Origin: Candidatus Parcubacteria bacterium
GTDB lineage: Bacteria > Patescibacteriota > Minisyncoccia > Phycocordibacterales > Zambryskibacteraceae
Assembly (NCBI GenBank): GCA_019661785.1
Contig: JAIFWP010000002.1
Coordinates: 161,869-225,868 of the forward strand
Reading direction: 5' to 3'
DNA length: 64,000 nucleotides
In this document: positions 4,626 through 48,718 of the stretch, one piece after another
Layout of the letters: each line of letters opens with the position of its first letter
Position numbering within the stretch: position 1 is the first letter of the stretch
Notes under the pieces: model-generated
The model's input: the letters and a program-made list of their open reading frames with translations, nothing else
Told to the model about the DNA's origin: nothing
Databases searched by the model: none
Made by a program: the position numbers and the translations under genes

Positions 4626-4700
4626 TTTAGTTTGCGAGTGCTATTAAGAGGAGTGCGATACTTATGACGGCGTAGGTGCCCAAAGTCTTAGTAAAGAGCC

Positions 4701-4940
4701 TTACTCCTTAGTCTCGTAGGCCTTGCGGACGTTAGCTTGGATAAAGTCGCTTAGCCCCTGGCCTGCTTCAGCTAGCTCCTTCATCTGCGCGACATTGTCT
4801 GCCCCGGCGCTCGCGTTCGTATACTTATATGTATAGAACCCGCTTCGGCTTGGGGTCTTGAACTTCACAATGATAAAGTCCTCGCCTATCTCATAGCTCT
4901 CGACGGGGGACTGCCCACTCACATTTTTGTATTCCTGCAT
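4701..4940 (-). CDS. KTSC-domain protein
   Basis: VESYEIGEDFIIVKFKTPSRSGFYTYKYTN...FIQANVRKAYE resembles the KTSC domain (PF13619). Confidence 0.55.
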   Translation of the reverse strand: MQEYKNVSGQSPVESYEIGEDFIIVKFKTPSRSGFYTYKYTNASAGADNVAQMKELAEAGQGLSDFIQANVRKAYETKE

Positions 4941-5028
4941 GGCTTTGGATTAACCTAATAATTCCGTCGGTACATTATAGCCCTTTGGATGGGAAAAACG
5001 GCCTATTTATGCTAAATTGGCCTTGTCT

Positions 5029-5120
5029 GGAGACGTGTCAGAGTGGTCTATCGTACCTCTTTGCTAAAGAGGTGTGCCCTTTAAAAGGCACCGACGGTTC
5101 GAATCCGTCCGTCTCCGCCA
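5029..5120 (+). tRNA. tRNA-Ser(GCU), class II with a long variable arm; CCA encoded
   Basis: Acceptor GGAGACG/CGTCTCC, anticodon arm CCTCT-TTGCTAA-AGAGG, variable hairpin GTGCC...GGCAC and T-arm GACGG-TTCGAAT-CCGTC. Confidence 0.85.
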
Positions 5121-5204
5121 AGTAGCCGTTCTTAGTGTTGAGTTGTTATCAACAGCTTTCAGTTTTTTGTCAAATAGTCGTTTTTTTCATGATAGTCTGA
5201 ATGT

Positions 5205-7046: not shown

Positions 7047-7047
7047 T

Positions 7048-8007: not shown

Positions 8008-8109
8008 ATTAAAGATTTTAATCTGTAATATTAAATTAAGTACATCAAATTTTATAAATTTCGAACGCCTTGAAAGATTAAAGGTTTTGTTGTAGTTTTG
8101 GTTGAATAA

Positions 8110-8976
8110 ATGACCTCACAACTTTTTCCAGAAGCAGCTCTCCCACAGTATCTTTTGGATATTTATTTCCAAGGGCCATCTTTTAACGGAATGATGGAGA
8201 TTGATTCCCTCGCCAAAGAGGTTCAAGGCTTAGAGACTGTGTTGAGAATTGCGTTGCATTCCCTGATAAAAAATAAAAGGCTTAATCTGAAAAGTGGGGA
8301 CTTGGAAATTTATGTTGAGGCATTTGAGAAGGGATCATTTCGAAAAAGAATAAAAGTTTTTAATAGGACAACAAAAGAATATGTGCCTCTAGTTAGTTTG
8401 GCAACATTAGTTGTCTTGATATTCCAAACGATCCCTCAATATAAAACAGAGGAGATAAAAACTTTGTCTCCAGAGCTAATTGCTTCAGTGAGAGATCAGG
8501 TAGTGTTAGAACTATTGCAGGATAAGAAGTTTTTGGGTGCAGCGGCTGATATTGTACAGCCTATATCGCTTGGAGGTGATATGTGCACTTTGTCTTCAGC
8601 CGTTGACAATAAAGCCGTGATTGATTCCGAAACTAGTAAGAAGTTTATTAATTTAACTGATTCTGCTGAGAGTTCAGTTGATGATGGGGAATATTATGAA
8701 GTATTGCAGGGAAGAATAAACAGGGTGGATCTGGATGCTTCAAGAAGGCATATAGGATTTAAGGTCAATAGTGAGGGAGCGACAATTGATGCAACATTTC
8801 AAAATAAGCCATCTCCCGAAGAAATGAAGTCTTTGCTTGGTGAGTGGGTGGAAATCAAAGGTAATGTTTCGTATATAGGCGGCCAAAGAAGTCATGTGGA
8901 TATCTCTGAATTTAATGTAATCAAACAGAGGCAATTTGATATGCATTCTGATCAATCAGATAATCCCAAAAAATAA
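8110..8976 (+). CDS. Hypothetical protein (288 aa) in the AT-rich island
   Basis: Long clean ORF with AT-rich composition like the RM genes. No recognizable motifs. Confidence 0.55.
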   Translation: MTSQLFPEAALPQYLLDIYFQGPSFNGMMEIDSLAKEVQGLETVLRIALHSLIKNKRLNLKSGDLEIYVEAFEKGSFRKRIKVFNRTTKEYVPLVSLATLVVLIFQTIPQYKTEEIKTLSPELIASVRDQVVLELLQDKKFLGAAADIVQPISLGGDMCTLSSAVDNKAVIDSETSKKFINLTDSAESSVDDGEYYEVLQGRINRVDLDASRRHIGFKVNSEGATIDATFQNKPSPEEMKSLLGEWVEIKGNVSYIGGQRSHVDISEFNVIKQRQFDMHSDQSDNPKK

Positions 8977-9007
8977 ATTAATATTACCGAGGTACACTTA
9001 AGCCCTA

Positions 9008-9388
9008 ATGTTTTTGAAATTCAGGCTTAGGCGGGGGAGAAAGACTATACGGCGGAGGCCGGCGGGGAAGTATTTGAAGTATAAGGAGGAGGCGAGGGCG
9101 CTGGTGCGGGCGAGGCTCGAGTACTTTAATGCCGAGTATGGCTTCAAGTGGAATCGTATTGCCATTAAGGACCACAAGTCGCGATGGGGTAGCTGCTCCA
9201 AGAAGGGGAATCTGAACTTTAACTACCGCATAGCCCTCATAGCGCCTCACCTTGCCGACTATATAGTAGTGCACGAGCTCTGCCACTTGGGAGAGCTTAA
9301 CCATTTAGTCGAGCGCTCTATGCCAGACTGGCGTAAGAGGCGAGACGAACTGATGAAGATAGGAGCCAACACTGCAAGTTTGATTTGA
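9008..9388 (+). CDS. DUF45/YgjP-family zinc metallohydrolase, C-terminal half only (likely 5'-truncated)
   Basis: SRWGSCSKKGNLNFNYRIALIAPHLADYIVVHELCHLGELNH (HExxH) matches the DUF45 C-terminus. About 100 N-terminal residues of the family are absent. The gene sits 31 nt after the island's last gene. Confidence 0.5.
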   Translation: MFLKFRLRRGRKTIRRRPAGKYLKYKEEARALVRARLEYFNAEYGFKWNRIAIKDHKSRWGSCSKKGNLNFNYRIALIAPHLADYIVVHELCHLGELNHLVERSMPDWRKRRDELMKIGANTASLI

Positions 9389-9583
9389 CCCATACGTCAG
9401 TAGGAGGATGAAAGAGAGCAAGAGACAAGTCAGGAACAAGGATGTGGTAAAGAATCAGCGCATGGTACACCTTTCAATACCCCCGAGGATGGAAGGTGAT
9501 ACAAAGAGCACAAGGACTAGGTCGAAGAAGAAGCCGGGTGAGATACACAAGCCACGGAAGGGGAAGTAGGCTAAAATGTATCG

Positions 9584-9838
9584 ATGAATATATGGCTCAA
9601 GCGTGAGTGGTATGTGGCCATGCATGGACAGCCGAGGAGCTTCCGCACTAAGAAGTGGATTGTGATACTCGTAGTCGCCGCAGTCCTCTATAGACTTCGT
9701 GGATGGGGTTTGGTCTTGTGGGTCTTTGCCCCGCTTGGACTCATTGGCATTTGTGCGCACTTCTACCTCAGGCATAAGACAGGTGGCTGGAGGAGGGAGT
9801 GGAAGTTTGTGAAAGCAATCCCTACCCCGTACGACTAA
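9584..9838 (+). CDS. Small two-TM hypothetical protein
   Basis: ORF with hydrophobic helices. The competing antisense ORF looks like junk. Confidence 0.3.
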   Translation: MNIWLKREWYVAMHGQPRSFRTKKWIVILVVAAVLYRLRGWGLVLWVFAPLGLIGICAHFYLRHKTGGWRREWKFVKAIPTPYD

Positions 9839-9855
9839 TAAGCTACAACACCCCC

Positions 9856-10302
9856 ATGTCAGAATATAAATCACAGTACAAAAACATCTTTGTGAATTTG
9901 CCCGTGAAGGATATTGGGAAGACCAGAGACTTCTGGACTAAGCTCGGCTTTAACTTCAACCCGCAGTTTAGCGATGAGAGGAACCTGTGCCTCGTCATCC
10001 ATGACAACATCTTTGCCATGCTCCTTAGCGAGGACTTCTTTAAAGGTTTTACTAAGGTAGAGATTGCCGATCCGAGGAAGGCGAACGAGGCCATAGTAGC
10101 TCTCTCGGCCGAGAGCAGGGAAGACGCAGATGGGCTCTTCAATAAAGCCGTAGCCGCGGGTGGAGTAGAGACGCGCCCAGCTGAGGACATGGGGTGGATG
10201 TACGGCAGAGCCTTCCAGGACCTCGACGGACATCAATGGGAGGTTGTGTGGATGGACATGGCCAAGGCGCCAGCGCATCCGGGCGAGGCTACCAATAATT
10301 AA
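9856..10302 (+). CDS. VOC (glyoxalase/bleomycin-resistance fold) family protein
   Basis: Internal ATG (MSEYKSQYKNIFVNLPVKD...) chosen over the track start at 9799. Beta-alpha-beta-beta-beta VOC pattern. Confidence 0.65.
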   Translation: MSEYKSQYKNIFVNLPVKDIGKTRDFWTKLGFNFNPQFSDERNLCLVIHDNIFAMLLSEDFFKGFTKVEIADPRKANEAIVALSAESREDADGLFNKAVAAGGVETRPAEDMGWMYGRAFQDLDGHQWEVVWMDMAKAPAHPGEATNN

Positions 10303-29993: not shown

Positions 29994-30148
29994 TCTATCC
30001 ACCTATATCATTGTTGCGGGTGCCCGATTTGCACGGACGCCTACAGGTTATGAGCCTGTCGAGGTACTGCTCCTCCAACCCGCTAAGACAGGTATTATAA
30101 CGTACAGGACTGACAAAATCAACGAAAAATAGTATAGTGTTTCCCATC

Positions 30149-30221
30149 GTCGGGGTAGCTCAGTCGGTAGAGCACAGGACTCATAAGCCTGGGGTCGTGG
30201 GTTCGATCCCCACCTCCGACA
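30149..30221 (+). tRNA. tRNA-Met(CAU), elongator-type or Ile2-type
   Basis: G1-C72 acceptor, anticodon loop CTCATAA, canonical T-arm GTGGG-TTCGATC-CCCAC. The antisense translation shows the classic GSNPRP tRNA artefact. Confidence 0.8.
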
Positions 30222-30245
30222 CCTGCCCCGATGGGGGAAAATAAT

Positions 30246-30317
30246 GCGGCTGTAGCTCAACGGTAGAGCACTCCCCTGTCACGGGAGAGGCCGTGGGGTC
30301 AGCACCCATCAGCCGCG
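30246..30317 (+). tRNA. tRNA-Asp(GUC) with a non-canonical T-loop (GTCAGCA)
   Basis: Acceptor GCGGCTG/CAGCCGC, D-arm GCTC-AACGGTA-GAGC, anticodon arm CTCCC-CTGTCAC-GGGAG. Confidence 0.6.
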
Positions 30318-30396
30318 CAGAAATAGTTAAATACAAAAGAAATCGCAAAAAATGTCGAGCCTCAGACTCGGCATTTTTTGCTAAAATAGCAGCACT

Positions 30397-32472
30397 GTGA
30401 AGCACCTTAAGTTCTTTTGGGCTCCTTTCCTTACATTAGTCCTTATAGCCAACCCGCTCTTTGCCGTCGCAGAGACTCAGGTCTTATCTATAGATACAGC
30501 AGAGCTTACCGAGGCTACGACTACTCCAGATACACAGGAGATAATAGTGAAGTATAAGGACTCAGACGACATACAAATCGTCGAGGCGGAGAGTCCTGCA
30601 CAAGTAGACGAGACTATACAAAGCATTGAGTCTAACCCCAGTGTGGACTACGCTGAGCCCAACTTCAGCCGAGATATCTTCGCCATAGACTCAAACGATA
30701 CTCACCGTGCTCTCGAGTGGGGCCTAGACAACACTGGTCAGACCATCCTTGGCACAGCCGGCACCTTAGATGCTGACATAGACGCGCCCGAGGCCTGGGC
30801 TATGTCTGAGGGCACTAGCACTCTCGTCGCCGTCATAGATATCGGAGTCGACTACAGACATCCCGATATAGCCAATAAGATGTGGGATGGCAGCTCGTGC
30901 GTGGATGACTCTGGCGCCACAATAAGCGGGGGTTGTCTGCATGGATATGACTTCACTAATGGAGACAATGACCCTTTGCCGCCTCAGACTAGCGGAGGAG
31001 TGAACTTCCATGGCACGCACGTAGCGGGCATCATCGCGGCAGAGAAGGGCAATGGTCTTGGTATTACTGGCGTTGCGCCAAATGCGAGGATAATGGCCAT
31101 CCGCTTTGCCCTTGATGTGGCGAGCGAGGTCAGGGCTATCAACTTCGCCAAGGCGAATGGAGCTAAGATTATTAACGCTTCGTATGGAGGCAACGAGTTT
31201 TCGCAGGCAGAGTACGATGCTATAAAGAGCTTCACCGATGGGGGAGGAATCTTCGTCGCTGCGGCAGGCAACAGTGCTGCGAACAACGATGGAGGCACCC
31301 ACACTTATCCTGCAGATTACGATATTGCTAATATCGTCACAGTAGCTGCTATTAACAACCGCGACGGGCTCACATCCTTCTCTAACTACGGAGCTAGTTC
31401 AGTCGATGTCGGCGCTCCTGGTGAATCTATTTTGAGTCTCTATCCCGACTACAGCGTGCCATCGTCTCCTTCATACATATATGCTTATGCTGACGGCACC
31501 TCAATGGCCGCTCCTATGACGGCTGGAGCAGTGGCTCTCCTGTGGGGAGCATCTCCCACACTTAGCTCTGCGCAAGTAGTGAGCCTCATTACGAGTACGG
31601 GAGACTCTTTGCCCGCTCTCGCAGGCAAGACCACGAGCGGCAAGCGTATCAACGTCTACAATGCATTGCACTCTGTCCTCGCCACTTCCACAGCCGTGCT
31701 CTCTGGCTTGCCGAGCGCTACCTCGACCGAGGGCATACCAAGCCTTAGCGTGACAGTCGGCGGGGACGGCATAGCTTACTATGCGTATAAACTCGATGGC
31801 AGTGCTTGGAGCGCGACGACTACTGTGGCCACTCCTATCACCGCTACGTCTCTCACGAACGGTATGCACAGCCTCTCTGTCATTGGTGGATCGGCTTACG
31901 GCGTTTGGCAAAGTGAGGCCTCGTCGACGGACTATACATGGAATGTGGTCGACACTACTGCGCCAGACGTGACTGGCCTTGCGGATGATGCTAATGGCAC
32001 ACAGTCTAAGTCTTGGAGCTGGGGCTCGTTAGACCCGACGGCCATCTTCCGCTTTGAGGTGTCTACATCCTCAGTACCGCTTGCTCTAGCCAGCACGACA
32101 TATGCGACGACGACAAGTGCAAATGTAAGCAGTCCTCTTGGCGCCGTCTATATACATGTGCAGGCAAAGGACAACAACGGCAACGAGAGCGCGGTGCGGA
32201 CCTTCTCCGCGCTTCTCGCCGAGCCTGTAGCGCCAGTCGCGCCTGCTCCTAGCGGTGGTGGAGGGGGAGGCGGCGGCGGCGGGGGTGGTGGAGGAGGTTC
32301 GAGTTCCGGTTCATCCTCTCCTACCGTGACCCAGGCTCTCTCAGGAGACGAGAATAGTGATGGCAAGGTAGACTTGCTCGACTTCAACAGCCTTATGATC
32401 CATTGGTCCTCGCGTGCGAATCCGATACTCGACTTTAATAGCTTAATGGTACACTGGTCACTCCAAGGATAA
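30397..32472 (+). CDS. Secreted subtilisin-like serine protease (S8) with a C-terminal poly-Gly linker and a dockerin-like EF-hand repeat
   Basis: Catalytic Asp (VAVIDIGVD), His (HGTHVAG) and Ser (GTSMAAP). Fifteen Gly in a row. GDENSDGKVDLLDFNSLMIHW fits the dockerin Ca-binding loop at positions 1, 3, 5, 9 and 12, and a second helix repeats (LDFNSLMVHW). Confidence 0.8.
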   Translation: MKHLKFFWAPFLTLVLIANPLFAVAETQVLSIDTAELTEATTTPDTQEIIVKYKDSDDIQIVEAESPAQVDETIQSIESNPSVDYAEPNFSRDIFAIDSNDTHRALEWGLDNTGQTILGTAGTLDADIDAPEAWAMSEGTSTLVAVIDIGVDYRHPDIANKMWDGSSCVDDSGATISGGCLHGYDFTNGDNDPLPPQTSGGVNFHGTHVAGIIAAEKGNGLGITGVAPNARIMAIRFALDVASEVRAINFAKANGAKIINASYGGNEFSQAEYDAIKSFTDGGGIFVAAAGNSAANNDGGTHTYPADYDIANIVTVAAINNRDGLTSFSNYGASSVDVGAPGESILSLYPDYSVPSSPSYIYAYADGTSMAAPMTAGAVALLWGASPTLSSAQVVSLITSTGDSLPALAGKTTSGKRINVYNALHSVLATSTAVLSGLPSATSTEGIPSLSVTVGGDGIAYYAYKLDGSAWSATTTVATPITATSLTNGMHSLSVIGGSAYGVWQSEASSTDYTWNVVDTTAPDVTGLADDANGTQSKSWSWGSLDPTAIFRFEVSTSSVPLALASTTYATTTSANVSSPLGAVYIHVQAKDNNGNESAVRTFSALLAEPVAPVAPAPSGGGGGGGGGGGGGGGSSSGSSSPTVTQALSGDENSDGKVDLLDFNSLMIHWSSRANPILDFNSLMVHWSLQG

Positions 32473-32483
32473 CTAACAGATAT

Positions 32484-33206
32484 ATGAAAAAAGCTTTACT
32501 AGCCCTCTCGTTATCGCTCGCTCTGCCCATGCTTGCTTCGGCGAGTACGGCCTACTTCACTCCGGCTACGGTCACGGTGAAGCCTGGACAGAGCGTCACC
32601 CTGAGCATCATCGTCGACCCACAAGGTGCTCAAGTCTATACTGCTAAGATCGCTGTATCTTACCCGAGTGACTTGGTGAGCGTGACATCATTTAGCCCCG
32701 CCTCTGGTTGGCTCTCGCTTAACCAGCCTGGATACGATGTCGTAGACAACGCAGCCGGCTCTCTCATAAAGACTGCTGGATATGCAGGAGGCTTTAGCGG
32801 CGTTAAGATATTTGGCACCATCACTCTCACTGCCAAAGCTTCGGGCTCTGCCACGGTCTCTATTACCGGAACCACGCAAGTGCTTGGCGCTAATAATGAG
32901 AACTCCTTCTCCTCTGGCGGACGAGCGATAGTAGTTGTCTCGACTCCGACACCAGCTACAACGGTTGTGAATCCGGCTCGACCTCTGCTCAAGAAGCCTT
33001 CCGCACCAGTAGCGAAGACTGCTTCGACTACCGCAGCCTCGTCTACAGCGAGTACCACGGCTACACCAGAGGCGAGTAGTCCCGTACCCGAGCTCGCTTC
33101 AGCTGTATCTACTGGTAGCAAGAACATGACCTTGGTTCTGGGGTTTGTAGCTGTGGCAGCTGCTTTCTTGGCGGGGATATTTATTGGCCGCCTCAAGACT
33201 GTATAA
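32484..33206 (+). CDS. Membrane-anchored surface protein with a cohesin-like beta-sandwich domain, a Thr/Ser/Ala-rich stalk and a C-terminal TM
   Basis: Signal peptide. FTPATVTVKPGQSVTLSIIVDP...AKIAVSYPSDLVSVTSF resembles cohesin-module sequence patterns. C-terminal TM helix plus RLK. Confidence 0.5.
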   Translation: MKKALLALSLSLALPMLASASTAYFTPATVTVKPGQSVTLSIIVDPQGAQVYTAKIAVSYPSDLVSVTSFSPASGWLSLNQPGYDVVDNAAGSLIKTAGYAGGFSGVKIFGTITLTAKASGSATVSITGTTQVLGANNENSFSSGGRAIVVVSTPTPATTVVNPARPLLKKPSAPVAKTASTTAASSTASTTATPEASSPVPELASAVSTGSKNMTLVLGFVAVAAAFLAGIFIGRLKTV

Positions 33207-33213
33207 TAAACAC

Positions 33214-33882
33214 ATGAATATAAAACGCGATTTATCGATACTAGCTGTAGTAGTGCTCGTGGCTATATGCGGAGGAGTCCTATACATGCGACCCGCTCTG
33301 CATCCTATTGTTACGCCGGGACCGACTGGCACAGGACAGACCCAGGTGTTGCCTTTGGACGGTACGGTAGTGCTCCACCTTGGAGAGACAGCGTCATTTA
33401 GAAATCTTACCCTCACGCCAACTCAGTTGGTCGAAGATAGCCGATGCCCACAAGACGTGCAATGCATCCAGGCCGGGACGGTAAGGGTGAAGGTAGATGT
33501 ATCTTCGGGTCTTGGCAACGCCGCTTCGATATTGAAACTGGGCGAAGTCTTCACTACAGAGAGCGAGAGGATAACGCTCACAGAAGTGTCTCCATCCAAG
33601 CTGTCTTCTGTCACTATCGCTCCTGCGGATTACCAATTCACTTTCCTCGTAGAGTCGCAGGCTAGCCACATAGACAACGGCAGCACTTCAGGCAAGTGCT
33701 ATGTCGGCGGATGCTCAAGCCAGATTTGCTCTGACGAGCCTAATGCCGTATCAACCTGCGAGTACACGGCGGCTTATGCCTGCTACAAGACAGCCAAGTG
33801 CGAGAGACAGTCTACCGGCAAATGCGGATGGACTCCATCGACCGCACTCAATATGTGCCTCAAGAACCCTCCCTCGCTCTAG
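33214..33882 (+). CDS. Membrane-anchored protein with a Cys-rich C-terminal domain (10 Cys)
   Basis: Internal ATG chosen (MNIKRDLSILAVVVLV...). No family recognized. Confidence 0.5.
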   Translation: MNIKRDLSILAVVVLVAICGGVLYMRPALHPIVTPGPTGTGQTQVLPLDGTVVLHLGETASFRNLTLTPTQLVEDSRCPQDVQCIQAGTVRVKVDVSSGLGNAASILKLGEVFTTESERITLTEVSPSKLSSVTIAPADYQFTFLVESQASHIDNGSTSGKCYVGGCSSQICSDEPNAVSTCEYTAAYACYKTAKCERQSTGKCGWTPSTALNMCLKNPPSL

Positions 33883-35277: not shown

Positions 35278-35350
35278 GCCAAGATAGCTCAGTTGGTAGA
35301 GCACATCCATGGTAAGGATGAGGTCCCCGGTTCGATCCCGGGTCTTGGCT
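35278..35350 (+). tRNA. tRNA-Thr(GGU); CCA encoded at 35351-35353
   Basis: Acceptor GCCAAGA/TCTTGGC, anticodon loop ATGGTAA, T-arm CCCGG-TTCGATC-CCGGG. Confidence 0.85.
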
Positions 35351-35372
35351 CCAGGTCTGCTATACTCAGGTT

Positions 35373-35759
35373 ATGTCACGAGAAGGCGCTCCAACCCAAG
35401 AGCAAGTAAGAGAGGCTTACATCATAGATGAACTTAGAAATACCACTCCAGAAAAGTTAATGAATATGATGCAGGCCACTTCGGCCGAAGAGATGCGGAA
35501 AAATGCTCAAGATCCTGAACAAATCAAAGAATATCTAGCTTGGGATGATGAATGGAGGAGCTTGGTTCAGGCTCTAGAGGGTGAAGAAGGCGAAAGGCAG
35601 ATTTTAAATACAGAACTTAAAAGAGCTGACCTATATATCGCGGCCGACCTAACTGCTTTAGCCAGAGAGACGCTTGAGAGCGCTAGGGACATTGCATGGG
35701 CGATGGGATTCGAGAATGTTTCTGAGGACATTGAAGGTAGACTTGAGACACTCGAGTAG
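35373..35759 (+). CDS. Hypothetical protein (128 aa), acidic and helical
   Basis: ORF; lower GC. Confidence 0.45.
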   Translation: MSREGAPTQEQVREAYIIDELRNTTPEKLMNMMQATSAEEMRKNAQDPEQIKEYLAWDDEWRSLVQALEGEEGERQILNTELKRADLYIAADLTALARETLESARDIAWAMGFENVSEDIEGRLETLE

Positions 35760-35800
35760 TGTTTGCATATAGCAAGATAATGCATATCATTATCTGGCAA

Positions 35801-35873
35801 GCCACCCTAGCTCAGTTGGTAGAGCACCGCTTTCGTAAAGCGGGGGTCCGCAGTTCGATTCTGCGGGGTGGCT
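35801..35873 (+). tRNA. tRNA-Thr(CGU)
   Basis: Acceptor GCCACCC/GGGTGGC, anticodon loop TTCGTAA, T-arm CGCAG-TTCGATT-CTGCG. The prfB ATG starts 2 nt after the tRNA. Confidence 0.85.
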
Positions 35874-35874
35874 C

Positions 35875-41984: not shown

Positions 41985-42590
41985 TTATCCCAGGACCTTG
42001 TGCGCCAAACCCATCTGCACTGCTTCGTCAGCAGTGAGTATGGTATTTTTGCGCATCATCTCGAGCACTCGCTCAGGGGTGTAGCGTCCGTTAGTTGCAT
42101 CAGAGACGACACAGGCATACTGGTAGTCCTTGAGGTTGTCCTCCTTCAACATGGCCTCCATGTCCTCTACGGTGAAGCGTTTCTCTGTGCCGAAGGTGCG
42201 TCCAGCCATGTGGAAGAGGAGAGTAGTGTTCTGCGTGATGTAGCGCCTTTGCCCAGCGAGGAAGACGATAATGCCCGATGAGTCTACATCGCCGGAGCCT
42301 ATAGTCACGAGGTTTGGCTTGAGCCACGTGCGCATAGCATCGTAGAAGCTCATGCCTATGCCCGAGGCTCCTCCAAAGGAGTTCACCATGAGGTGTATCT
42401 CATCTTTGGGGCTCTCTATGAGCATGCGCTTGACCTCGTTCATGACGCTGTCGAGGTTCTGATAATTGACGCCGCCGAGCCAAGAAATAGTCCGCTCTGG
42501 TCGAGCGGAGAAGGGGGCTGCTTTGCTTCGGCTTCTGGTCTGGTTAGTAATGGTCGCGCTTGTTGTATTTATTGTATTTTTTGAATCCAC
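41985..42590 (-). CDS. ClpP-like serine peptidase (S14 family), stand-alone
   Basis: MVNSFGGASGIGMSFYDAM...GSGDVDSSGIIVFLAG...LLFHMAG align with the ClpP Ser and His regions. Confidence 0.6.
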   Translation of the reverse strand: MDSKNTINTTSATITNQTRSRSKAAPFSARPERTISWLGGVNYQNLDSVMNEVKRMLIESPKDEIHLMVNSFGGASGIGMSFYDAMRTWLKPNLVTIGSGDVDSSGIIVFLAGQRRYITQNTTLLFHMAGRTFGTEKRFTVEDMEAMLKEDNLKDYQYACVVSDATNGRYTPERVLEMMRKNTILTADEAVQMGLAHKVLG

Positions 42591-42688
42591 TTTTTTGTAT
42601 TAAATTTTCTTAACCCACATCCTATATATTTACTACACAACATGCAAGCTCATCAGTAAAGAGTTGTGTGGATAACTATTGGATATGC

Positions 42689-42714
42689 AAAAACTCCCGG
42701 AGACGGGAGTTTTT
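42689..42714 (-). terminator. Intrinsic terminator AAAAACTCCCGG-AGA-CGGGAGTTTTT
   Basis: Follows the stop of the KGG gene; palindromic. Confidence 0.7.
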
Positions 42715-42735
42715 GCTAGGATGCGCTCTCGATCA

Positions 42736-42948
42736 TTACATGTTGTTGCTGCCACCCTGATTGCCGCCCTGGTTGTTGCCGCGTGCCTGGCCGCCCTTGC
42801 GTCCAGCCTCACGTGCTTCCTCAGAGTCGAACTCATGAGCGGTACCCTTCTCGTGAGCGGCCTTGCCACCCTTCGAAGCGATCTCGCGCTGCTTGTCCTC
42901 GTCCATGCCAGCGAATCCGCGTCCGCTGTTGCTGTTGTTGTCTGCCAT
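42736..42948 (-). CDS. KGG-repeat general stress protein (YciG/GsiB-like)
   Basis: SKGGKAAHEKG...GRKGGQARG repeats. Confidence 0.7.
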   Translation of the reverse strand: MADNNSNSGRGFAGMDEDKQREIASKGGKAAHEKGTAHEFDSEEAREAGRKGGQARGNNQGGNQGGSNNM

Positions 42949-43045
42949 GTTAGTGAAATTAAAATCTAATTGCTGTTAATCTCGACCCTGCACGGAAAGA
43001 CGACGAGCTATAATCGACCTTACATTTTCTTATGGTGTAATTAAC

Positions 43046-43651
43046 TTACAGAGATTTTATATCTGAAACTAATTCTGGGAATTCTTTTTGATTGAAATGT
43101 CCTTTGTCTTTGAAAGTTCTCACAACTGCGTTTGGTATGGCTTTTGCATATTTAGCAATGTCTTTGAACGGCACCTGTTTGTCATCCTTGCTGTGATATA
43201 GGAATATCTTCCCGCCTTGTTCTTCCAGCAGCTTCAAACTTGGCGGGAGATTGAAATCAACTAGCTCATAATCCGCATCCTCTTCATCAAACGGTGCGGC
43301 AATTAGGAAAGTGCCATGTATGCGCTTGGCGAGCTTGTTCTCCGATAGATACTTGGCCAAGAATATACCGCCAAGTGAGTGTCCAACCAAGATAATCTCT
43401 TGGTCTAGAAGCGGCAGAAGCTTTTCGAACCAGATCCTCCACTCTTCATATCTGGCATTGAACTTGTTCGGCATCTCTGGACGGATGACCTTGTACTCGT
43501 CACCAAGGCTAGATTCTAAAGAGTCTTTCCAACCCTGCTTCATAAAGTACTCTAAGCTGTCTACGACAAACTCTTTGAGCGAAGCTATGTATGCCTCGTA
43601 GGTGCCATAGTTGTCTCCTCCGTGTATGACTACGACCTGCTTCTTCATCAC
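43046..43651 (-). CDS. Alpha/beta-hydrolase (serine hydrolase, YdeN/RBBP9-like)
   Basis: GHSLGG nucleophile elbow; AT-rich. Confidence 0.7.
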   Translation of the reverse strand: MMKKQVVVIHGGDNYGTYEAYIASLKEFVVDSLEYFMKQGWKDSLESSLGDEYKVIRPEMPNKFNARYEEWRIWFEKLLPLLDQEIILVGHSLGGIFLAKYLSENKLAKRIHGTFLIAAPFDEEDADYELVDFNLPPSLKLLEEQGGKIFLYHSKDDKQVPFKDIAKYAKAIPNAVVRTFKDKGHFNQKEFPELVSDIKSL

Positions 43652-43905
43652 CTCAGATAAAGGTATAAACCGGAGGCTATTATGATTTGAATGATAATCG
43701 CGACAAAAAGCTTTGAGGAGCTCTTAATGGAAGGGCCGTATAGATACGCCGCTAACGATATGGCATATAGGACTATTGCGAATCCTAAAACGATGAGCAA
43801 ATTTGGCCCTTCGGGGTCGTTAAAGAGCGCGAGCATTACTCTAGAGCATACGATAGCTGTTATGCCTAGGATTAGTAATGAAGTCTTATTTGAATGCAGA
43901 TGCAT
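43648..43905 (-). CDS. Small membrane protein (85 aa)
   Basis: Three hydrophobic helices; overlaps the neighbor by 4 nt. Confidence 0.4.
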   Translation of the reverse strand: MHLHSNKTSLLILGITAIVCSRVMLALFNDPEGPNLLIVLGFAIVLYAISLAAYLYGPSIKSSSKLFVAIIIQIIIASGLYLYLR

Positions 43906-43906
43906 G

Positions 43907-44083
43907 CTAGCTAGCTTTATGGAACTTCTTGCCTATGTAGTATGGCCAGATGATGATGGCGAGCACTCCTCTCCAGAAGGTGAGTCGAAGATATCCGATA
44001 GTGAATAGCCATCCAATAGTCCACAGTGGCCCTAAGCCGTTTCCAGTAACAATAACATTATGAAATTTATCTATGTTTTGCAT
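43907..44083 (-). CDS. Small membrane protein (58 aa)
   Basis: Below the 60-aa cutoff and so absent from the track. Its stop lies 2 nt before the next start, which points to an operon. Confidence 0.3.
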   Translation of the reverse strand: MQNIDKFHNVIVTGNGLGPLWTIGWLFTIGYLRLTFWRGVLAIIIWPYYIGKKFHKAS

Positions 44084-44254
44084 GTGTAGATTATAGCACT
44101 GACAATGAGAGGTTAAACAGTGATAAGTAGGAACAGAACGAGGAGAAGAATGCCTGGAACCATTTATCTGTGCACAAAATTATTGCGTAATATTGCTCTG
44201 ATAAATGATAGAATGTTGTCATAAGTACCATTATTAAATTAACTACCAACATAT

Positions 44255-46636
44255 TTGTATTGGACAAAAGACAATATAAAAACTTTGGCCAATATATTTA
44301 TGAATAAAGTAAAATCGGCAGCATCGGCGCTTGTCATTATCAGCATGTTCATGGGAAGTGCTCTCCCCGCATTTGCCCAGCTCGGCGGTGTCACCTCTCC
44401 GCCTGTTGAAGCGCCCTCTGCTCCCGTACCCGAGCCTGCACCAGCACCTGTAGTAGAACCGTCAGCGCCACCTGCTCCCGAAGTCGAAGGTGTGGAACCA
44501 GAAGTGCAGACAACTGTTGAAACAGGCACTCAAACAGTTACGGAAACTGTCACGCAAATAGTTGCCGCAGATACTACCGCGCCGGTCATTTCCGGAGTTG
44601 CCGATCTTTCGCTTGGCTTGAGCGAAGCCACGATCGTCTGGACTACGGACGAACTCGCTACTTCTCGTCTTGAGTACGGAACAACGGAGAGTTACGGATC
44701 ACAAGCCACTCTCGATGATACAGCCCTCTTGGCGCACACCGCGATCATTCTTGGCCTTGCACCGAATACGACATACTACTACTGTATTCATGCGACAGAC
44801 CTTTCTCACAACACCAGGAATTCATGCGGGCATTCTTTCAGGACATCGGCAGCTCAAATCATTGAAGACACCACACCGCCGGATGTGACACTCATAACGG
44901 TTGCGCCAATCACGACGACTGGAGCAACGATCAATTTCACCACGGACCAAATTGGCAATACCCGAGTTGAATACGGCACGACGGCTGGCTATGGAGAAAC
45001 GACAGCTCTCAATACAACTTTCGCAATCAATCACAGCGTCACCCTTTCCAACCTTACATCAAACACTCTCTATCACTACCGCATAATCACGAGTGACGAA
45101 ATCGGCAATGAGACCATCACCTCAGACGAGACATTTACCACTGATAGCTTGGTGGACGTTAATGCCGGCGCCACCGTTCCTGAATCGTTAAATGCTGGTG
45201 CAGGAGATACAGGAATCAGCGCATCGGTAGTTATTTCCGCTGTCGATGCGGTTTCTCTGTCTACTGGAAGCGCCACGATCACCTGGCACACCAATCTTCC
45301 TTCGGATTCTCAGATCGAATATGGCGACAGTGAGAATTTCGGATCATTAAGCATTTTAAGTACTGCTCTTACCACTTCTCATTCAGTCACCTTGAACGGC
45401 TTGGCTCAAAACACCAACTACATCTTCCGAGTCAAATCAAAACCGCTTGGAGCATCGGTTGCTACTGTGTCTCAAAACTATGAGTTCGATACGCTCAATC
45501 ATTCCATCCCAGTCGTGGCACCAGCAAACATCATTTCGGTTTCTTCGGGATCGGTAACAAATACTGGAGCGACTATAAATTGGACGACAGACAAGGGAGC
45601 AACATCGCAAGTGGAGTACGGCACTGATACCGCCTACGAATTTTCGAGTACGAATACCGAAACTCTTCTCACTTCTCACTCAGTTGCTTTGAGTAGTCTC
45701 AATTCAGGCACAGCGTATCACTATCGAGTGAAATCTGTTGATGAAGCGGGAAACATTACTTTTTCCGAGGACTATACCTTCATCACTACAGGCACCTCTT
45801 CCAATGTTTCAACACCTCCTGCACCAATCATTACGAGTGAAGGAGAAACTCCGATTGTTGATGTAGCAGGCGTTGACGGACAGGTGGTTTTTGAGATTAA
45901 TGAGGGCAATCCGGCTATCAATGAAGATGTTGTCATCGAACGAGACGAGGTTGTCATCTACGAAGGCAACAGCGAGACATTCACTGACACCAACCAGACA
46001 AATGGAGTGACTCATAATTACACTGTCTTTGCCCGTAGCTCTGGTGGAGGTTCATCAAGACCGGTTAACATCTCCATTGCTCCGGTTGCAGGAGTGCGAC
46101 AGGTGAAATTTAATGAAAGCGGCACGCTCTCCTCATCCACTCCAGCCTTCCATTTCGTCAAACAATGGCAGAAGGGCGACACGGATATCGAGATAGAGCA
46201 TTTGCAGGAGATACTCGTAGCGGACAAGGACTCATACCCTGAAAAATATGTTACTGGATATTTCGGTCCGCTCACCGAAGCCGCTCTCAAGCGTTTCCAG
46301 GCAAAGCATGGTCTCCCTCAAACAGGTGCGGTTAATGCTGCGACCCAAGAAAAACTCAATACGGTTTCCCATTCAGAAACTAAGCTCGATATCTCACATG
46401 ATTACGTCGTCTTTGCCACCGACCTAAAGCGTGGCGATCAGGGAGAATCCGTTAAAGATATCCAGCAGTACCTCATCTACGAGGGCAGTTATCAGGAAGC
46501 GATAATCTCAGGTTACTTTGGCAACTTCACTCATAATGCGGTGAAAATATTCCAAACAAAATACAATATTAATCCGGTATCGGGAATCGTTGGCCCAAAG
46601 ACTCGTCACAAGATGCAGCAGTTGGTGGGGTTATAG
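44255..46636 (+). CDS. Large secreted surface protein: four Fn3/PAP-N-like repeats plus two C-terminal peptidoglycan-binding (PG_binding_1) domains; the true start is probably the ATG at 44300
   Basis: Signal peptide MNKVKSAASALVIISMFMGSALPAFA. Repeated ...ATINWTTD..ATS.VEYGTT..YG...SHSV.L..L..NT.Y.YR. Two GYFGP/N...LK.FQ..H/Y motifs. Confidence 0.75.
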   Translation: MYWTKDNIKTLANIFMNKVKSAASALVIISMFMGSALPAFAQLGGVTSPPVEAPSAPVPEPAPAPVVEPSAPPAPEVEGVEPEVQTTVETGTQTVTETVTQIVAADTTAPVISGVADLSLGLSEATIVWTTDELATSRLEYGTTESYGSQATLDDTALLAHTAIILGLAPNTTYYYCIHATDLSHNTRNSCGHSFRTSAAQIIEDTTPPDVTLITVAPITTTGATINFTTDQIGNTRVEYGTTAGYGETTALNTTFAINHSVTLSNLTSNTLYHYRIITSDEIGNETITSDETFTTDSLVDVNAGATVPESLNAGAGDTGISASVVISAVDAVSLSTGSATITWHTNLPSDSQIEYGDSENFGSLSILSTALTTSHSVTLNGLAQNTNYIFRVKSKPLGASVATVSQNYEFDTLNHSIPVVAPANIISVSSGSVTNTGATINWTTDKGATSQVEYGTDTAYEFSSTNTETLLTSHSVALSSLNSGTAYHYRVKSVDEAGNITFSEDYTFITTGTSSNVSTPPAPIITSEGETPIVDVAGVDGQVVFEINEGNPAINEDVVIERDEVVIYEGNSETFTDTNQTNGVTHNYTVFARSSGGGSSRPVNISIAPVAGVRQVKFNESGTLSSSTPAFHFVKQWQKGDTDIEIEHLQEILVADKDSYPEKYVTGYFGPLTEAALKRFQAKHGLPQTGAVNAATQEKLNTVSHSETKLDISHDYVVFATDLKRGDQGESVKDIQQYLIYEGSYQEAIISGYFGNFTHNAVKIFQTKYNINPVSGIVGPKTRHKMQQLVGL

Positions 46637-46665
46637 TCAAACCCTCCGTTTCGAAGAGGGTTCGG

Positions 46666-47001
46666 TCACAAATTATTGTTAATGAGATTCAGTTTCTTTT
46701 CACGTCGCCAGCCCTTCAATTCCAACTCTCTTTGCTTCGCTTCTTTCAGAGTTTGGAATATCTCTTTGTATCTTAACTCAACTGGTCTGCGGATCTTCGT
46801 ATAATATGCTCCCCACTTGGAGTCATTGTGTTGATGTAACCTCCTTTCAAGATTATTTGTACACCCTACATATAAGGACTTATCTGCGCATTCGAGAATA
46901 TAGACGAAGAATGACACATTCAAATAATACCACTTCGCTCTACTGAGCTCAGTGCCTTCGTCGACCTTGTGAAATACGGTCGAAGACCCTGAGGAGCACA
47001 A
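46666..47001 (-). CDS. GIY-YIG nuclease family protein
   Basis: FFVYILECADKSLYVGCTNNLERRLHQHN...; the start is uncertain. Confidence 0.7.
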   Translation of the reverse strand: MCSSGSSTVFHKVDEGTELSRAKWYYLNVSFFVYILECADKSLYVGCTNNLERRLHQHNDSKWGAYYTKIRRPVELRYKEIFQTLKEAKQRELELKGWRREKKLNLINNNL

Positions 47002-47012
47002 GCGACGAAGGG

Positions 47013-47083
47013 CTGCCGATCAGGGACTCGAACCCCAATTAACCGCTCCAGAGGCGGTCGTCCTACCATTAGACGAATCGGCA
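47013..47083 (-). tRNA. tRNA-Gln(CUG)
   Basis: Reverse-strand U1-A72 acceptor TGCCGAT/ATCGGCA, anticodon arm ACCGC-CTCTGGA-GCGGT, T-loop TTCGAGT. Confidence 0.7.
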
Positions 47084-47141
47084 ATACAGGCCAAGAATAG
47101 CTCAAAAGCGAGCTATTTTCAATCTTGATATACTTACTGCT

Positions 47142-47579
47142 ATGAAAACCATAGCCCCAGAGGCACTTGAGTATTTGAAGACACAGAGAGTGGGGACGCT
47201 CGCTGTGGAGATGCTCGATGGGTCGCCGCATGCGGCGACGGTGCACTTTGCCCATACTGAGGAGCCCTTAGCCTTCTATATACAGACGGGTACAGATTGT
47301 CGCAAGAGTGAAGCGCTTTTGAAGAACGGCTCTACCCGAGCAAGTTTCGTCGTTGGCTCAGACGAGAGCAACATGAAGACTCTCCAGCTCGATGGCGTAG
47401 CCAAGGTCGCGAATGAAGGGGAGGAGGACCACTTCATGGAGATCTACTTGGGCAAGTTCCCTTCGAAGGAAGGCAAGGTCAAGGACCCCGAGGCTTTATT
47501 TATAATATTTACCCCTACCTGGTGGCGCTTCACTGACTGGAAGACAGCCGAAGGCAAGAAGATCTGGATTTCAGAATAG
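47142..47579 (+). CDS. Pyridoxamine 5'-phosphate oxidase-like FMN-binding family protein
   Basis: Split-barrel pattern (VGTLAVEMLDGSPHAATVHF). Confidence 0.55.
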   Translation: MKTIAPEALEYLKTQRVGTLAVEMLDGSPHAATVHFAHTEEPLAFYIQTGTDCRKSEALLKNGSTRASFVVGSDESNMKTLQLDGVAKVANEGEEDHFMEIYLGKFPSKEGKVKDPEALFIIFTPTWWRFTDWKTAEGKKIWISE

Positions 47580-47603
47580 CTTCAACACAACGTCGTACTT
47601 GTT

Positions 47604-47801
47604 ATGCCAAGAAAGTACAGTAAAAAGTCACAGCAGAAGGTGGAGAAGGTCATGCACGAGTATAAGGAAGGGAAACTTAAGAGTGGACGAAGCGGCAAGA
47701 AGGTTAAGAGCCGCAAGCAAGCTATAGCCATAGGGCTCTCAGAGGCTCGTCGTGCTGGAGCCAAAATCCCTCCTCCTAAGAAGAAGCCTCGCGCTCGATA
47801 A
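47604..47801 (+). CDS. Small basic Lys-rich protein (65 aa)
   Basis: ORF; pI highly basic. Confidence 0.45.
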   Translation: MPRKYSKKSQQKVEKVMHEYKEGKLKSGRSGKKVKSRKQAIAIGLSEARRAGAKIPPPKKKPRAR

Positions 47802-47803
47802 CT

Positions 47804-48718
47804 TTAATGCGATTTTGTGCTGGCATTAGCTTGTGGTGAGACAGAGGATTCTCCACCGGTATTAACTGCTGTAAGCCAGTAATGGTAGCTAGTGTTGGGT
47901 TTTAGCCCAGTATCGTTTTTGGTTGTCGCAGATATGCCAGAGTAGGTAGGGGTAGCGGGCCTCGTGTTGGTGGTGCTCCTATATATGTTGTAAGTAACAG
48001 CACCGCTCACTGCCTTCCAGCTCAAGTCTATCTCAATCGAAGAGCGGACGGTTAGAGTTGGCGCAGATGGAGTGGCTGGTGCCGTTACGACCAGTGCTGG
48101 CGTCACAGGTTCTGCAACTGTCTGTGCCGTAGAGTCATCTGACGAATTGCTGTCGCTTGCGGGCTGGCTTAGCGAGGAGTCTTCTCCACTCGTATTGGTA
48201 GTGTCGCTGTCTTCCATTAAGAGGGCTTCAGACGTAGTAGCTAAGCCAAGGAGCCTCGACTCCTCAGGAAAGTAGGTATCTCCGAGCCGCATACGGTTTA
48301 TGACAATGGTGAAGATACTCTCAAGAGTCTCTCGGTCTACTACGCCTGTCACCTTGAGCTGGAATCCTTCTTGGAAGACGCTAACCGCGCCTTGCGTAGT
48401 CGGACCGTAGTATCCGGAGACAGACTCTTGGTCGAGGAATTCGATATTAGCTAGGAGCTCTTGAAGGCGCTTCACAGAATCTCCGCTCACGCCGAGTGTC
48501 ATGGGCTTTGGCAAGGGCACTAGAATCTCTAACTTATCGCGCTCAAGCCCCGCACGCAGGTCGGTTATCTTGTAGTGAAGGCTGGTTGAAAGCTCCTCGG
48601 CTGTGGAGGGGCCAGGATCTTCCGTAGGGACATCGGCAGGCGATGGCACAGTCAAACCAAGGAATGCTGTCGCGCTAAGCGCAATCGAAGCTGCCCATTT
48701 GCCGAGCAGGGAGAGCAT
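47804..48718 (-). CDS. Secreted protein with a PG_binding_1 domain and a C-terminal Fn3 domain
   Basis: Signal peptide; GDSVKRLQELL...YYGPTTQGAVSVFQ; Fn3-like LTVRSSIEIDLSWKAV...YRS. Confidence 0.65.
   Translation of the reverse strand: MLSLLGKWAASIALSATAFLGLTVPSPADVPTEDPGPSTAEELSTSLHYKITDLRAGLERDKLEILVPLPKPMTLGVSGDSVKRLQELLANIEFLDQESVSGYYGPTTQGAVSVFQEGFQLKVTGVVDRETLESIFTIVINRMRLGDTYFPEESRLLGLATTSEALLMEDSDTTNTSGEDSSLSQPASDSNSSDDSTAQTVAEPVTPALVVTAPATPSAPTLTVRSSIEIDLSWKAVSGAVTYNIYRSTTNTRPATPTYSGISATTKNDTGLKPNTSYHYWLTAVNTGGESSVSPQANASTKSH

Follow-up and report, generated by a model that had tools for sequence, protein, structure and literature searches.

A probable cohesin-dockerin gene pair for surface tethering of a subtilase in a Parcubacteria bacterium

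Single-cohesin anchors of cellulosomes are attached to the cell through SLH domains or by a sortase acting on an LPXTG motif. In OlpA and OlpC of C. thermocellum and ScaE of R. flavefaciens, one cell-bound cohesin captures a dockerin-bearing enzyme or scaffoldin at the surface. Cohesins and dockerins also occur outside cellulosomes on non-cellulolytic proteins, as in the toxin/glycosidase complexes of C. perfringens and in Archaeoglobus fulgidus; in C. perfringens, these modules join soluble multi-modular enzymes to one another. To our knowledge, CPR genomes were unavailable in 2009, the year of a survey of non-cellulosomal cohesin-dockerin modules reportedly published by Peer et al. in FEMS Microbiol Lett 291:1. 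Truncation of canonical dockerins often weakens or abolishes binding, and the group-2 dockerins of R. flavefaciens, which are single-repeat and resemble the C-terminal half of group-4 dockerins, have been shown by experiment to bind cohesins with a single loop (Duarte et al. 2025, PMC12270676). Our search of the literature found no paper describing a cohesin-dockerin cassette in CPR bacteria.

Here, we analyse two adjoining genes in a 64-kb stretch of DNA from Parcubacteria (CPR/Patescibacteria), referred to below as the window (Table 1). They very probably form a minimal surface-tethering cassette, in which one cargo protein carries a dockerin and one anchor protein carries the matching cohesin.

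Table 1. Features of the cargo and anchor genes (nucleotide positions within the window; residues numbered in each protein)
Feature	Position	Strand	Basis
Cargo gene, secreted S8 subtilase, 691 aa	30397..32472	+	ORF; Pfam; orthologs
Sec-type signal peptide, residues 1-25 (...PLFAVA/ETQ)	30397..30471	+	Sequence reading; predicted cleavage site
S8 catalytic domain, residues 139-402	30811..31602	+	Pfam; motif positions
Beta-rich middle region, residues ~430-612	31684..32232	+	No Pfam match at E<=10; modules of relatives
15-Gly linker, residues 620-634, mixed GGN codons	32254..32298	+	Sequence
Truncated dockerin, residues 650-691	32344..32469	+	Ca loop, helix 1, 7-residue connector, helix 2
EF-hand-like Ca loop DENSDGKVDLLD (D1, N3, D5, D9, D12)	32347..32382	+	Dockerin_1 profile positions 2-18
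Second helix repeat ILDFNSLMVHW, without its own Ca loop	32425..32457	+	Sequence, alignment
Anchor gene, 240 aa: signal peptide, cohesin module, stalk, TM helix	32484..33206	+	
Cohesin-fold module, residues 21-155	32544..32948	+	AF2, Foldseek, Pfam in family members
Thr/Ser/Ala/Pro-rich low-complexity stalk, residues 156-214	32949..33125	+	pLDDT 51-73, no secondary structure
C-terminal TM helix, residues 215-235, then basic tail RLKTV	33126..33188	+	AF2 helix 215-237

The cargo consists of a signal peptide, a pro-region, a catalytic domain, a beta-rich middle, a poly-Gly linker and a truncated dockerin, an architecture shared by orthologs of 50-62% identity. Its catalytic domain scores 161.7 bits with Pfam Peptidase_S8 (cut-off 21.8 bits, E=3e-47) and contains the DIG (148), HGTH (205) and GTSMA (367) motifs with the canonical D148, H206 and S369. 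By its Pfam score and Asp/His/Ser triad it is an S8 subtilase with predicted activity, as a first-pass annotation of this DNA had proposed. That annotation had also described a 15-Gly linker, and the run is of exactly that length; most cargo proteins encoded at related loci likewise have a poly-Gly run ahead of the dockerin. The middle region matches no Pfam family at E<=10, and its equivalent in relatives consists of Ig-like or fn3-like modules.

Beyond the linker, the tail reads GDENSDGKVDLLDFNSLMIHW...ILDFNSLMVHWSLQG, with the helix motif repeated. Both observations behind the original dockerin proposal hold: the calcium ligands D, N, D, D and D lie at loop positions 1, 3, 5, 9 and 12 (D651, N653, D655, D659 and D662), and the LDFNSLMVHW repeat is present. 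A full dockerin is a tandem duplication of ~22 residues with two 12-residue Ca loops; in the window tail only the first, DENSDGKVDLLD, is found. A 12-column gap replaces the second loop in alignment with full relatives, while the helix of the second repeat is retained. The tail is clearly homologous to full two-repeat dockerins and, as modelled, has the helix pair packed around calcium loop sequence that characterises the fold. As read from sequence, it is a derived dockerin that has kept both helices and had its second Ca loop deleted, a form common to the S8 cargo proteins of one small clade. Related CPR cassettes (L007, L008, L020 and L047) have the mirror form, in which the first loop is lost. 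Loss of one Ca loop could leave binding weaker or abolish it.

Profile searches, the check initially suggested for this tail, gave a split result. With Dockerin_1 (PF00404), the window tail scores 13.5-14.3 bits over profile positions 2-18 of 57, below the threshold of 22.9, but its relatives do match: 14/16 tails at E<=0.1 (best E 3e-10), and 40/64 cargo proteins at E<=0.001. In PDB sequence searches with a tail profile, the best match was the dockerin of C. perfringens NagH (2jnk/2ozn). Using the 53-residue tail alone, Foldseek returned no significant match (E ~7), nor did a homolog search with a word index requiring three shared 5-mers. A search for further dockerin-tailed proteins had also been suggested; across all six frames of the 64-kb window, the tail motifs and dockerin occur just once.

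The anchor protein is identical to the NCBI hypothetical protein KW800_01825 of Candidatus Parcubacteria bacterium. All the parts earlier ascribed to it are present: a signal peptide, a beta-rich module, a Thr/Ser/Ala stalk and a C-terminal TM helix. The architecture is uniform, as 120/139 further representatives of the family have both a signal peptide and a C-terminal TM; counting the TM alone gives 127/139, with K/R next in 125. The stalk is present across the family, and its sequence is not conserved.

The suspected resemblance of the module to cohesins is borne out by its predicted structure. AF2 models anchor residues ~21-155 as beta-rich with pLDDT 97-98, and the top 50 Foldseek matches in the PDB are all cohesins (E down to 3.3e-9, target-normalised TM <=0.83), spanning types I, II and III as well as non-cellulosomal examples (2jh2, 2vo8 and 2xdh). 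The AF2 model and these matches agree on the nine-stranded beta-sandwich (jelly-roll) typical of cohesins. Sequence comparison is less direct: the window anchor has no match to Pfam Cohesin (PF00963) at E<=10, but 19/46 homologs match at E<=0.01 (best 1e-8), and some homologs carry the NCBI label 'cohesin domain-containing protein'. We assign the module to the cohesins because of its predicted structure and these weak matches in some family members. Searches of PDB chains with the anchor sequence and a family profile found no solved cohesin; the weak matches that they gave (a phage tail protein V Ig domain, Fab light chains and a Hoc-like protein) cover the signal peptide or first strand only and were rejected. 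Ig-like Pfam identities (HYDIN/VesB-like, fn3_5 and Big_2) were also set aside in favour of the fold result, since they are sub-threshold and confined to the ~40 residues at the start of the module.

The strongest evidence for a cassette is genomic. The two ORFs lie 11 nt apart on the same strand, with AGGA at 32465-32468 ahead of the anchor start and no terminator between the genes; on these grounds they are probably co-transcribed. Elsewhere, the anchor gene was directly downstream in 4/4 loci of protease homologs, and a dockerin-tailed gene was directly upstream in 4/4 loci of anchor homologs. We also scanned species-level genomes, 62 of which carry the anchor. In 58 of these 62 loci, the immediately upstream ORF is on the same strand and has a dockerin at its extreme C-terminus; cutting, masking or degradation affects the remaining four. 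Three of the 58 (L063, L066 and L068) are in-frame fusions of cargo, dockerin, cohesin and TM, and what looks like a fourth fusion, in L040, is an artefact produced by masked Ns. While tail and anchor stay constant, the cargo varies, including S8, polysaccharide deacetylase, CHB_HEX_C_1/Fn3_assoc, beta-helix/NosD, LTD and fn3/Ig proteins. Both L004 and the second L015 cassette pair a dockerin subtype marked by 'DKYDF' with a cohesin of a divergent subtype, so that the L015 genome has two different dockerin-cohesin pairs. The complete CPR genome CP179889.1 contains two cassettes. Dockerin and cohesin distances are correlated (Mantel r 0.41, 0/2000 permutations), which shared phylogeny alone could explain.

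Binding between dockerin and cohesin is here inferred from genomic linkage, and the dockerin might instead bind a glycan of a host cell, a cohesin encoded elsewhere in the genome, or a partner cell. The cohesin-like neighbour would then act independently, for instance as an adhesin or carbohydrate binder. There are precedents, as an essential dockerin-domain protein of Saccharibacteria has been speculated to target host glycans (PMC10633639) and dockerin-like repeats in giant proteins of Omnitrophota have been proposed as adhesins (PMC10066038). Same-strand adjacency in 58/62 loci despite unrelated cargo, together with the three in-frame fusions, makes this reading unlikely. It also sits poorly with the single dockerin and single cohesin of the 64-kb window adjoining each other, and with the matching of distinct dockerin subtypes to distinct cohesin subtypes, seen in L015 inside a single genome.

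Another possibility is that dockerin and cohesin meet in trans, notably in the fusions, building a surface lattice or linking cells, with the protease cassette as one branch of such a system. The connector in the three fusions is ~10-20 residues and may be too short for intrachain binding, and one R. flavefaciens cohesin can hold two single-loop dockerins simultaneously (PMC12270676). However, fusions make up only 3/58 loci, and in the usual form the anchor is a protein of its own, monovalent and with a single TM, and the cargo has just one dockerin, which would give a 1:1 tether and no polymer; we consider self-assembly very improbable. Gly-rich C-terminal sorting domains are known in other bacteria, yet even with the sub-threshold Dockerin_1 score and an anchor that by itself matches just Ig-like Pfam families, it is scarcely credible that the tail functions in sorting, processing or wall binding next to an unrelated Ig-like surface protein, given that the protease matches no NCBIfam sorting domain (LPXTG, PEP-CTERM or GlyGly-CTERM type) and its amphipathic tail ends in ...HWSLQG without a TM segment.

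The tether originally suggested for these two proteins is thus supported by domain identities, modelled folds, anchor architecture, near-obligatory adjacency across CPR species, fusions and the range of cargo. From these we infer physical binding, its calcium dependence, the surface location and the physiological role. In the cassette as we picture it, the protease would be exported via Sec, its pro-region presumably being removed, and the flexible run of 15 glycines would serve as a leash for its small dockerin. The anchor would be a type I membrane protein fixed by its C-terminal TM helix, with the basic end cytoplasmic, and its single cohesin module would be kept off the membrane by the ~60-residue Thr/Ser/Ala/Pro stalk. 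The dockerin, its sole EF-hand-like loop probably occupied by calcium, would bind this cohesin, and the active protease would therefore be retained on the producer's own surface rather than diffusing away. There it may cleave proteins locally, as a means of scavenging nutrients or of interacting with a host.

The occurrence of this two-gene cassette with many cargos across the CPR radiation points to a general means of surface display. We lean, by a little, towards a broader reading still: a modular plug-and-socket display system found throughout CPR bacteria and so far undescribed as a system, with monovalent anchors almost always beside or fused to their own cargo. Proteases, deacetylases, beta-helix proteins and Ig/fn3 adhesin-like proteins would all serve as plugged cargo. 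A single genome could combine dockerin-cohesin pairs of orthogonal specificity, and one-loop dockerins would have arisen repeatedly by loss of either the first or the second loop. For ultrasmall CPR cells, poor in wall and in sortases, this is perhaps a principal way of arming the surface to scavenge or to contact a host.

Episymbiosis or scavenging by CPR/Patescibacteria takes place at the cell surface. If true, the cassette offers a concrete and testable mechanism by which varied enzymes and adhesin-like proteins are non-covalently plugged into a membrane socket, as well as a set of candidate surface effectors. It also supplies an easy genomic marker, as the gene upstream of an anchor would encode surface cargo. 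The cohesin-dockerin field would gain hundreds of minimal, naturally paired 1:1 modules, of which the one-loop dockerins of both polarities and the natural fusions would be useful for specificity studies and protein engineering. Even if binding failed experimentally, such strict adjacency would need explaining.

Among described systems, OlpA, OlpC and ScaE resemble the proposed cassette in their use of one cell-bound cohesin, and complexes of the OlpC and OlpA cohesins (4dh2 and 3ul4) are among the fold matches of the anchor. Unlike these anchoring scaffoldins, the window anchor has neither a Pfam SLH match nor an LPXTG motif, ending instead in a TM helix and basic tail. Whereas cellulosome anchors serve many dockerin proteins encoded genome-wide, the CPR anchor is paired, essentially 1:1, with its own adjoining cargo; this cargo belongs to a CPR bacterium and is non-cellulolytic. 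In this last respect, the cassette resembles the pairs of C. perfringens and A. fulgidus, whose cohesins are also among the fold matches (2jh2, 2vo8 and 2w1n, and 2xdh, respectively). However, C. perfringens links enzyme to enzyme, while the CPR cassette would provide a dedicated membrane socket. The naturally truncated group-2 dockerins of R. flavefaciens set a precedent for function with one loop, but they consist of a single repeat; in the window dockerin, the N-terminal loop and the two helices remain, and the loss is confined to the second loop of 12 residues.

The cargo itself can be compared with CPR S8 proteases that carry PG_binding_1, which belong to the same protease family and bacterial group and have the same layout: a signal peptide, a fervidolysin-like pro-domain, the S8 domain, an Ig-like spacer and a C-terminal retention module. 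Pfam annotates PG_binding_1 in ~54 of the best 120 S8 homologs, C-terminally in the tails inspected, while the dockerin-tailed form is a minority with 11 of the 120. As PG_binding_1 lies at the C-terminus there, it is plausible, by analogy, that a dockerin in the same position also acts as a cell-surface retention module. The two would differ in how they hold the enzyme; retention by PG_binding_1 would be through direct binding to peptidoglycan, whereas the window protease would be held in a protein socket.

The first-pass annotation claimed an S8 subtilase with a dockerin-like tail next to a cohesin-like membrane protein, and both open reading frames lie on the forward strand exactly where it placed them (see table). 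The upstream protein has a Pfam Peptidase_S8 match at residues 139-402 (E=3e-47) containing the Asp, His and Ser motifs of S8 proteases, an N-terminal signal peptide and a weak Pfam match to a fervidolysin-type pro-domain; the Pfam scan assigned no family to its beta-rich middle region. The claimed C-terminal features are also all there: a poly-Gly linker of exactly 15 Gly (residues 620-634), and a tail (GDENSDGKVDLLDFNSLMIHWSSRANPILDFNSLMVHWSLQG) with loop residues D1, N3, D5, D9 and D12 and a repeated helix, LDFNSLM(I/V)HW. These loop and helix motifs are absent elsewhere in the window in all six frames.

The second gene, here called the anchor, starts after a gap of 11 nt, with a candidate ribosome-binding site (AGGA) at 32465-32468 and no terminator-like site found between the two genes. 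Both sequence and AF2 model confirm the claimed layout: after a signal peptide come a beta module that is modelled with confidence (pLDDT 97-98 over residues ~21-155), a Thr/Ser/Ala/Pro stalk that is disordered and, at the C-terminus, a TM helix with R and K behind it. The same sequence is known as a hypothetical protein from a 236-kb contig of a Candidatus Parcubacteria bacterium.

Features of the window and of cassette-bearing loci in other genomes (locus coordinates refer to each locus)
Feature	Coordinates	Strand	Remarks
S8 subtilase gene	30397-32472	+	ORF, 691 aa
Anchor gene	32484-33206	+	ORF, 240 aa
Gene directly 3' of anchor	33184-33882	+	232 aa; overlaps anchor end by 23 nt
tRNAs just upstream of cassette	30013-30318	-, +, +	tRNA-Met, tRNA-Met, tRNA-Asp
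tRNAs downstream of cassette	35278-35874		two tRNA-Thr
tRNA-Ser	5029-5120		low-GC island starts directly after
ORFs of low-GC island	5205-7046, 7048-8007, 8110-8976		
PG_binding_1 protein gene	44255-46636	+	793 aa
Natural fusion, L063	2796-4805		dockerin-cohesin spacing in the three fusions only ~10-20 residues
Natural fusion, L066	3540-5522		
Natural fusion, L068	3873-5684		
First cassette, L015	4270-5786		dockerin positions 10/11 IL/IF
Second cassette, L015	8038-9478		dockerin positions 10/11 KY; cohesin subtype differs correspondingly
KY-type cassette, L004	280-4646		divergent cohesin

The two genes form a conserved unit, a dockerin-tailed cargo gene followed by an anchor gene (the cassette). 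Genes for protease homologs with a dockerin tail are directly followed on their strand by an anchor family member in 4/4 cases (E-values 1e-72, 7e-78, 2e-66 and a divergent 1e-18), and the gene directly upstream of independently chosen anchor homologs ends in a Gly-rich linker and dockerin tail, also in 4/4. Scanning one genome per species (GTDB representatives) for the anchor family gave 62 loci, nearly all labelled Patescibacteria/CPR (Wolfe-, Jorgensen-, Yanofsky-, Nealson-, Azam-, Vogel-, Kaiser-, Magasanik- and Brennerbacteria, Kazan, Paceibacterota and others), which we searched in all six frames with HMMs of the tail and the anchor. The immediately upstream same-strand ORF carries a dockerin at its extreme C-terminus in 58 of the 62; the remaining four are uninformative or degraded, with the anchor at the contig start (2), an N-masked upstream region (1) or a 5'-truncated anchor fragment (1). 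Every dockerin hit in these loci (68 in all) shares its strand with a cohesin gene; L054 places two cargo genes ahead of a single anchor, and the 64-kb window contains exactly one dockerin and one cohesin. L027 and L048, which carry both anchor and dockerin, sit on short contigs (2.5 and 6.4 kb) in bins assigned to Planctomycetota and Gammaproteobacteria; mis-binning of CPR DNA is the probable explanation, and we do not take them to show that the cassette extends beyond CPR.

In three of the 58 loci (L063, L066 and L068), no stop codon separates the modules, resulting in natural cargo-polyGly-dockerin-cohesin-TM fusions; this 'Rosetta-stone' evidence links dockerin and cohesin functionally. 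An apparent fourth fusion, in L040, was rejected as an N-mask artefact. Binding in the fusion proteins could occur within one chain or between chains, the latter of which would polymerise them. We consider it likely that the protease's dockerin is bound to the co-expressed membrane cohesin, keeping the active protease on the producer's surface. The dockerin could instead bind something else, with the neighbouring cohesin-like protein being independent, but this is hard to square with genes that are almost always adjacent and in some loci fused, and seems unlikely. The short connector between dockerin and cohesin in the fusions suggests self-assembly, raising the idea that the pair assembles in trans into a lattice; however, fusions are rare, and we find this improbable.

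Cohesin and dockerin are barely recognisable in the window's own sequences. A Pfam scan of the two full-length proteins gave no Dockerin_1 or Cohesin match, so that the pair does not pass the check proposed in the first-pass annotation. The isolated tail scores 13.5-14.3 bits on Dockerin_1 (cut-off 22.9), aligning to profile positions 2-18 of 57, equivalent to one calcium loop. It falls short both of the Pfam threshold and of the two loops by which type I dockerins are defined. The isolated beta module matched no Cohesin model in Pfam, only generic Ig-like families below threshold over its first ~40 residues, and sequence and profile searches of PDB chains with the anchor found no cohesin. Taken alone, these Pfam and PDB sequence searches would make a cohesin-dockerin reading look refuted.

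Homologs and fold tell otherwise. Sixty anchor homologs share a signal peptide, a ~135-aa module, a low-complexity stalk, a TM helix and a basic end; 19 of 46 individually match Pfam Cohesin (best 1e-8), and a few carry the NCBI name 'cohesin domain-containing protein'. When an AF2 anchor model built from the homolog alignment was compared with the PDB, the top 50 structure matches were all cohesins. These include type I (CaCohA2 6kgc, E 3.3e-9; 1g1k; 1aoh), type II and type III cohesins, the OlpA/OlpC anchoring cohesins (3ul4, 4dh2) and non-cellulosomal cohesins of C. perfringens (2jh2, TM 0.83; 2vo8) and A. fulgidus (2xdh), and together with the Pfam matches of homologs they bear out the suggested cohesin-like neighbour. 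When 1.84 billion cluster representatives were searched exhaustively with the family profile, 2,142 members passed E<=1e-3 and 506 passed E<=1e-30; a signal-like N-terminus and a C-terminal TM helix occur together in 120/139 new representatives (median length 253 aa). The family is large and uniform, and its sequences lie far from those of cellulosomal cohesins. The window's sequences have the predicted fold, the loop-1 calcium-ligand pattern and clear homology to full members; that the tail is a sorting signal and its neighbour a generic Ig-like protein is contradicted by these homology and fold results, and is very improbable.

The cargo is diverse. In full-length context, 40/64 cargo proteins match Pfam Dockerin_1. 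An S8 protease domain occurs in seven; CHB_HEX_C_1 (14) and Fn3_assoc (11) occur in small ~210-aa cargo, and other domains include Pur_ac_phosph_N/fn3, beta-helix/NosD, lamin-tail and Ig-like modules and polysaccharide deacetylase. As the cargo varies and the plug (dockerin) and socket (cohesin) stay constant, a general tether is favoured; the varied cargo also argues against the anchor being a partner dedicated to proteases, as an inhibitor or a chaperone would be. PG_binding_1 and dockerin appear to be alternative cell-surface retention modules, since about 54 of the best 120 S8 homologs carry PG_binding_1 (C-terminal in the tails inspected), and only 11 a dockerin. A second lower-GC stretch of the window (42000-48000) contains a gene whose product combines four Pur_ac_phosph_N/fn3-like repeats with two PG_binding_1 domains at the C-terminus and is predicted to be a surface protein retained differently, by peptidoglycan binding, in the same genome.

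The loop-2 deletion seen in the window is confined to one small clade among the S8 cargo. The mirror form, with the first calcium loop missing and the second intact, is found at cargo C-termini in five loci (L007, L008, L020, L047 and L052), indicating that loops were lost from either repeat in different cargo lineages. Natural single-calcium-loop group-2 dockerins of R. flavefaciens bind the anchoring cohesin ScaE, while artificially truncated canonical dockerins sometimes keep full affinity but often do not (Duarte et al., PMC12270676). On these results, the window's dockerin is plausibly, though not assuredly, functional, and would probably have a single binding mode.

Dockerins with KY at the canonical recognition positions 10/11 (DKYDF) occur in L004 and in L015's second cassette, each time alongside a divergent cohesin subtype; the first L015 cassette has the common subtype of both modules. 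One genome can therefore hold two different pairs, as orthogonal specificities predict, and these sequences suggest that such specificities exist. Across 65 pairs, dockerin and cohesin distances are correlated (Mantel r 0.41, reached by 0/2,000 permutations), which lends weak support to specificity, as shared phylogeny could yield the same.

The cassette is flanked by tRNA genes, with GatA amidase upstream and endonuclease V and release factor 2 downstream. This gene order is common to locus L002 and partly to L005 and L006, placing the cassette in a conserved core neighbourhood rather than a mobile island. The gene directly 3' of the anchor encodes a protein with a TM or signal segment at its N-terminus and a cluster of eight cysteines at its C-terminus, with NCBIfam matches far under the cut-offs to heavy_Cys (TIGR04289) and CGP-CTERM Cys-rich (TIGR04292); it is apparently not a conserved cassette part, as downstream genes vary among loci L001-L008. 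Elsewhere in the window, a low-GC island (4000-10000; GC 0.37-0.43 vs ~0.53 for the remainder) carries genes for the methylase (N6_Mtase, E 2.5e-24) and the specificity subunit (Methylase_S, E 1.4e-25) of a type I restriction-modification system, and looks like a horizontally acquired insertion at a tRNA.

Mechanistically, the pre-pro-protease would be exported via Sec and mature. Its dockerin, on the 15-Gly leash, would then bind the cohesin of the co-expressed, putatively type I membrane anchor, presumably in a calcium-dependent manner. Fully extended, the ~60-residue stalk could span roughly 20 nm, placing the complex outside the wall, and the active protease would stay on the surface of the producer cell. 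Homologs, predicted folds, architecture, linkage, fusions and modular cargo all support the small non-cellulosomal pair with a surface protease that was originally suggested.

A literature search of incomplete coverage found no description of the cassette in CPR bacteria, and an earlier account may exist elsewhere. Closest to it come an essential protein with a dockerin domain in a Saccharibacterium, for which a cohesin is not discussed (PMC10633639), and dockerin repeats in giant Omnitrophota proteins (PMC10066038). The cassette is most likely a minimal, operon-paired, membrane-anchored cohesin-dockerin tether widespread in Patescibacteria; in the window its cargo is an S8 protease and its dockerin a derived form with one loop. 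With its near-obligatory pairing, fusions, diverse cargo and repeatedly occurring one-loop dockerins, it offers a useful and testable way into the biology of the CPR surface.

The tether principle itself is already known. The window's anchor would act in the same way as cellulosomal anchoring proteins with a single cohesin (OlpA/OlpC, ScaE), and the pair falls within the broader class of non-cellulosomal cohesin-dockerin pairs, which is known from C. perfringens and A. fulgidus and was reportedly surveyed by Peer et al. in 2009. Unlike the known systems, however, the cassette is found in a CPR bacterium, attaches through a TM helix rather than SLH or sortase, places a monovalent socket gene next to its own cargo gene, carries cargo that is not cellulolytic and, in the window, uses a dockerin of one loop and two helices.
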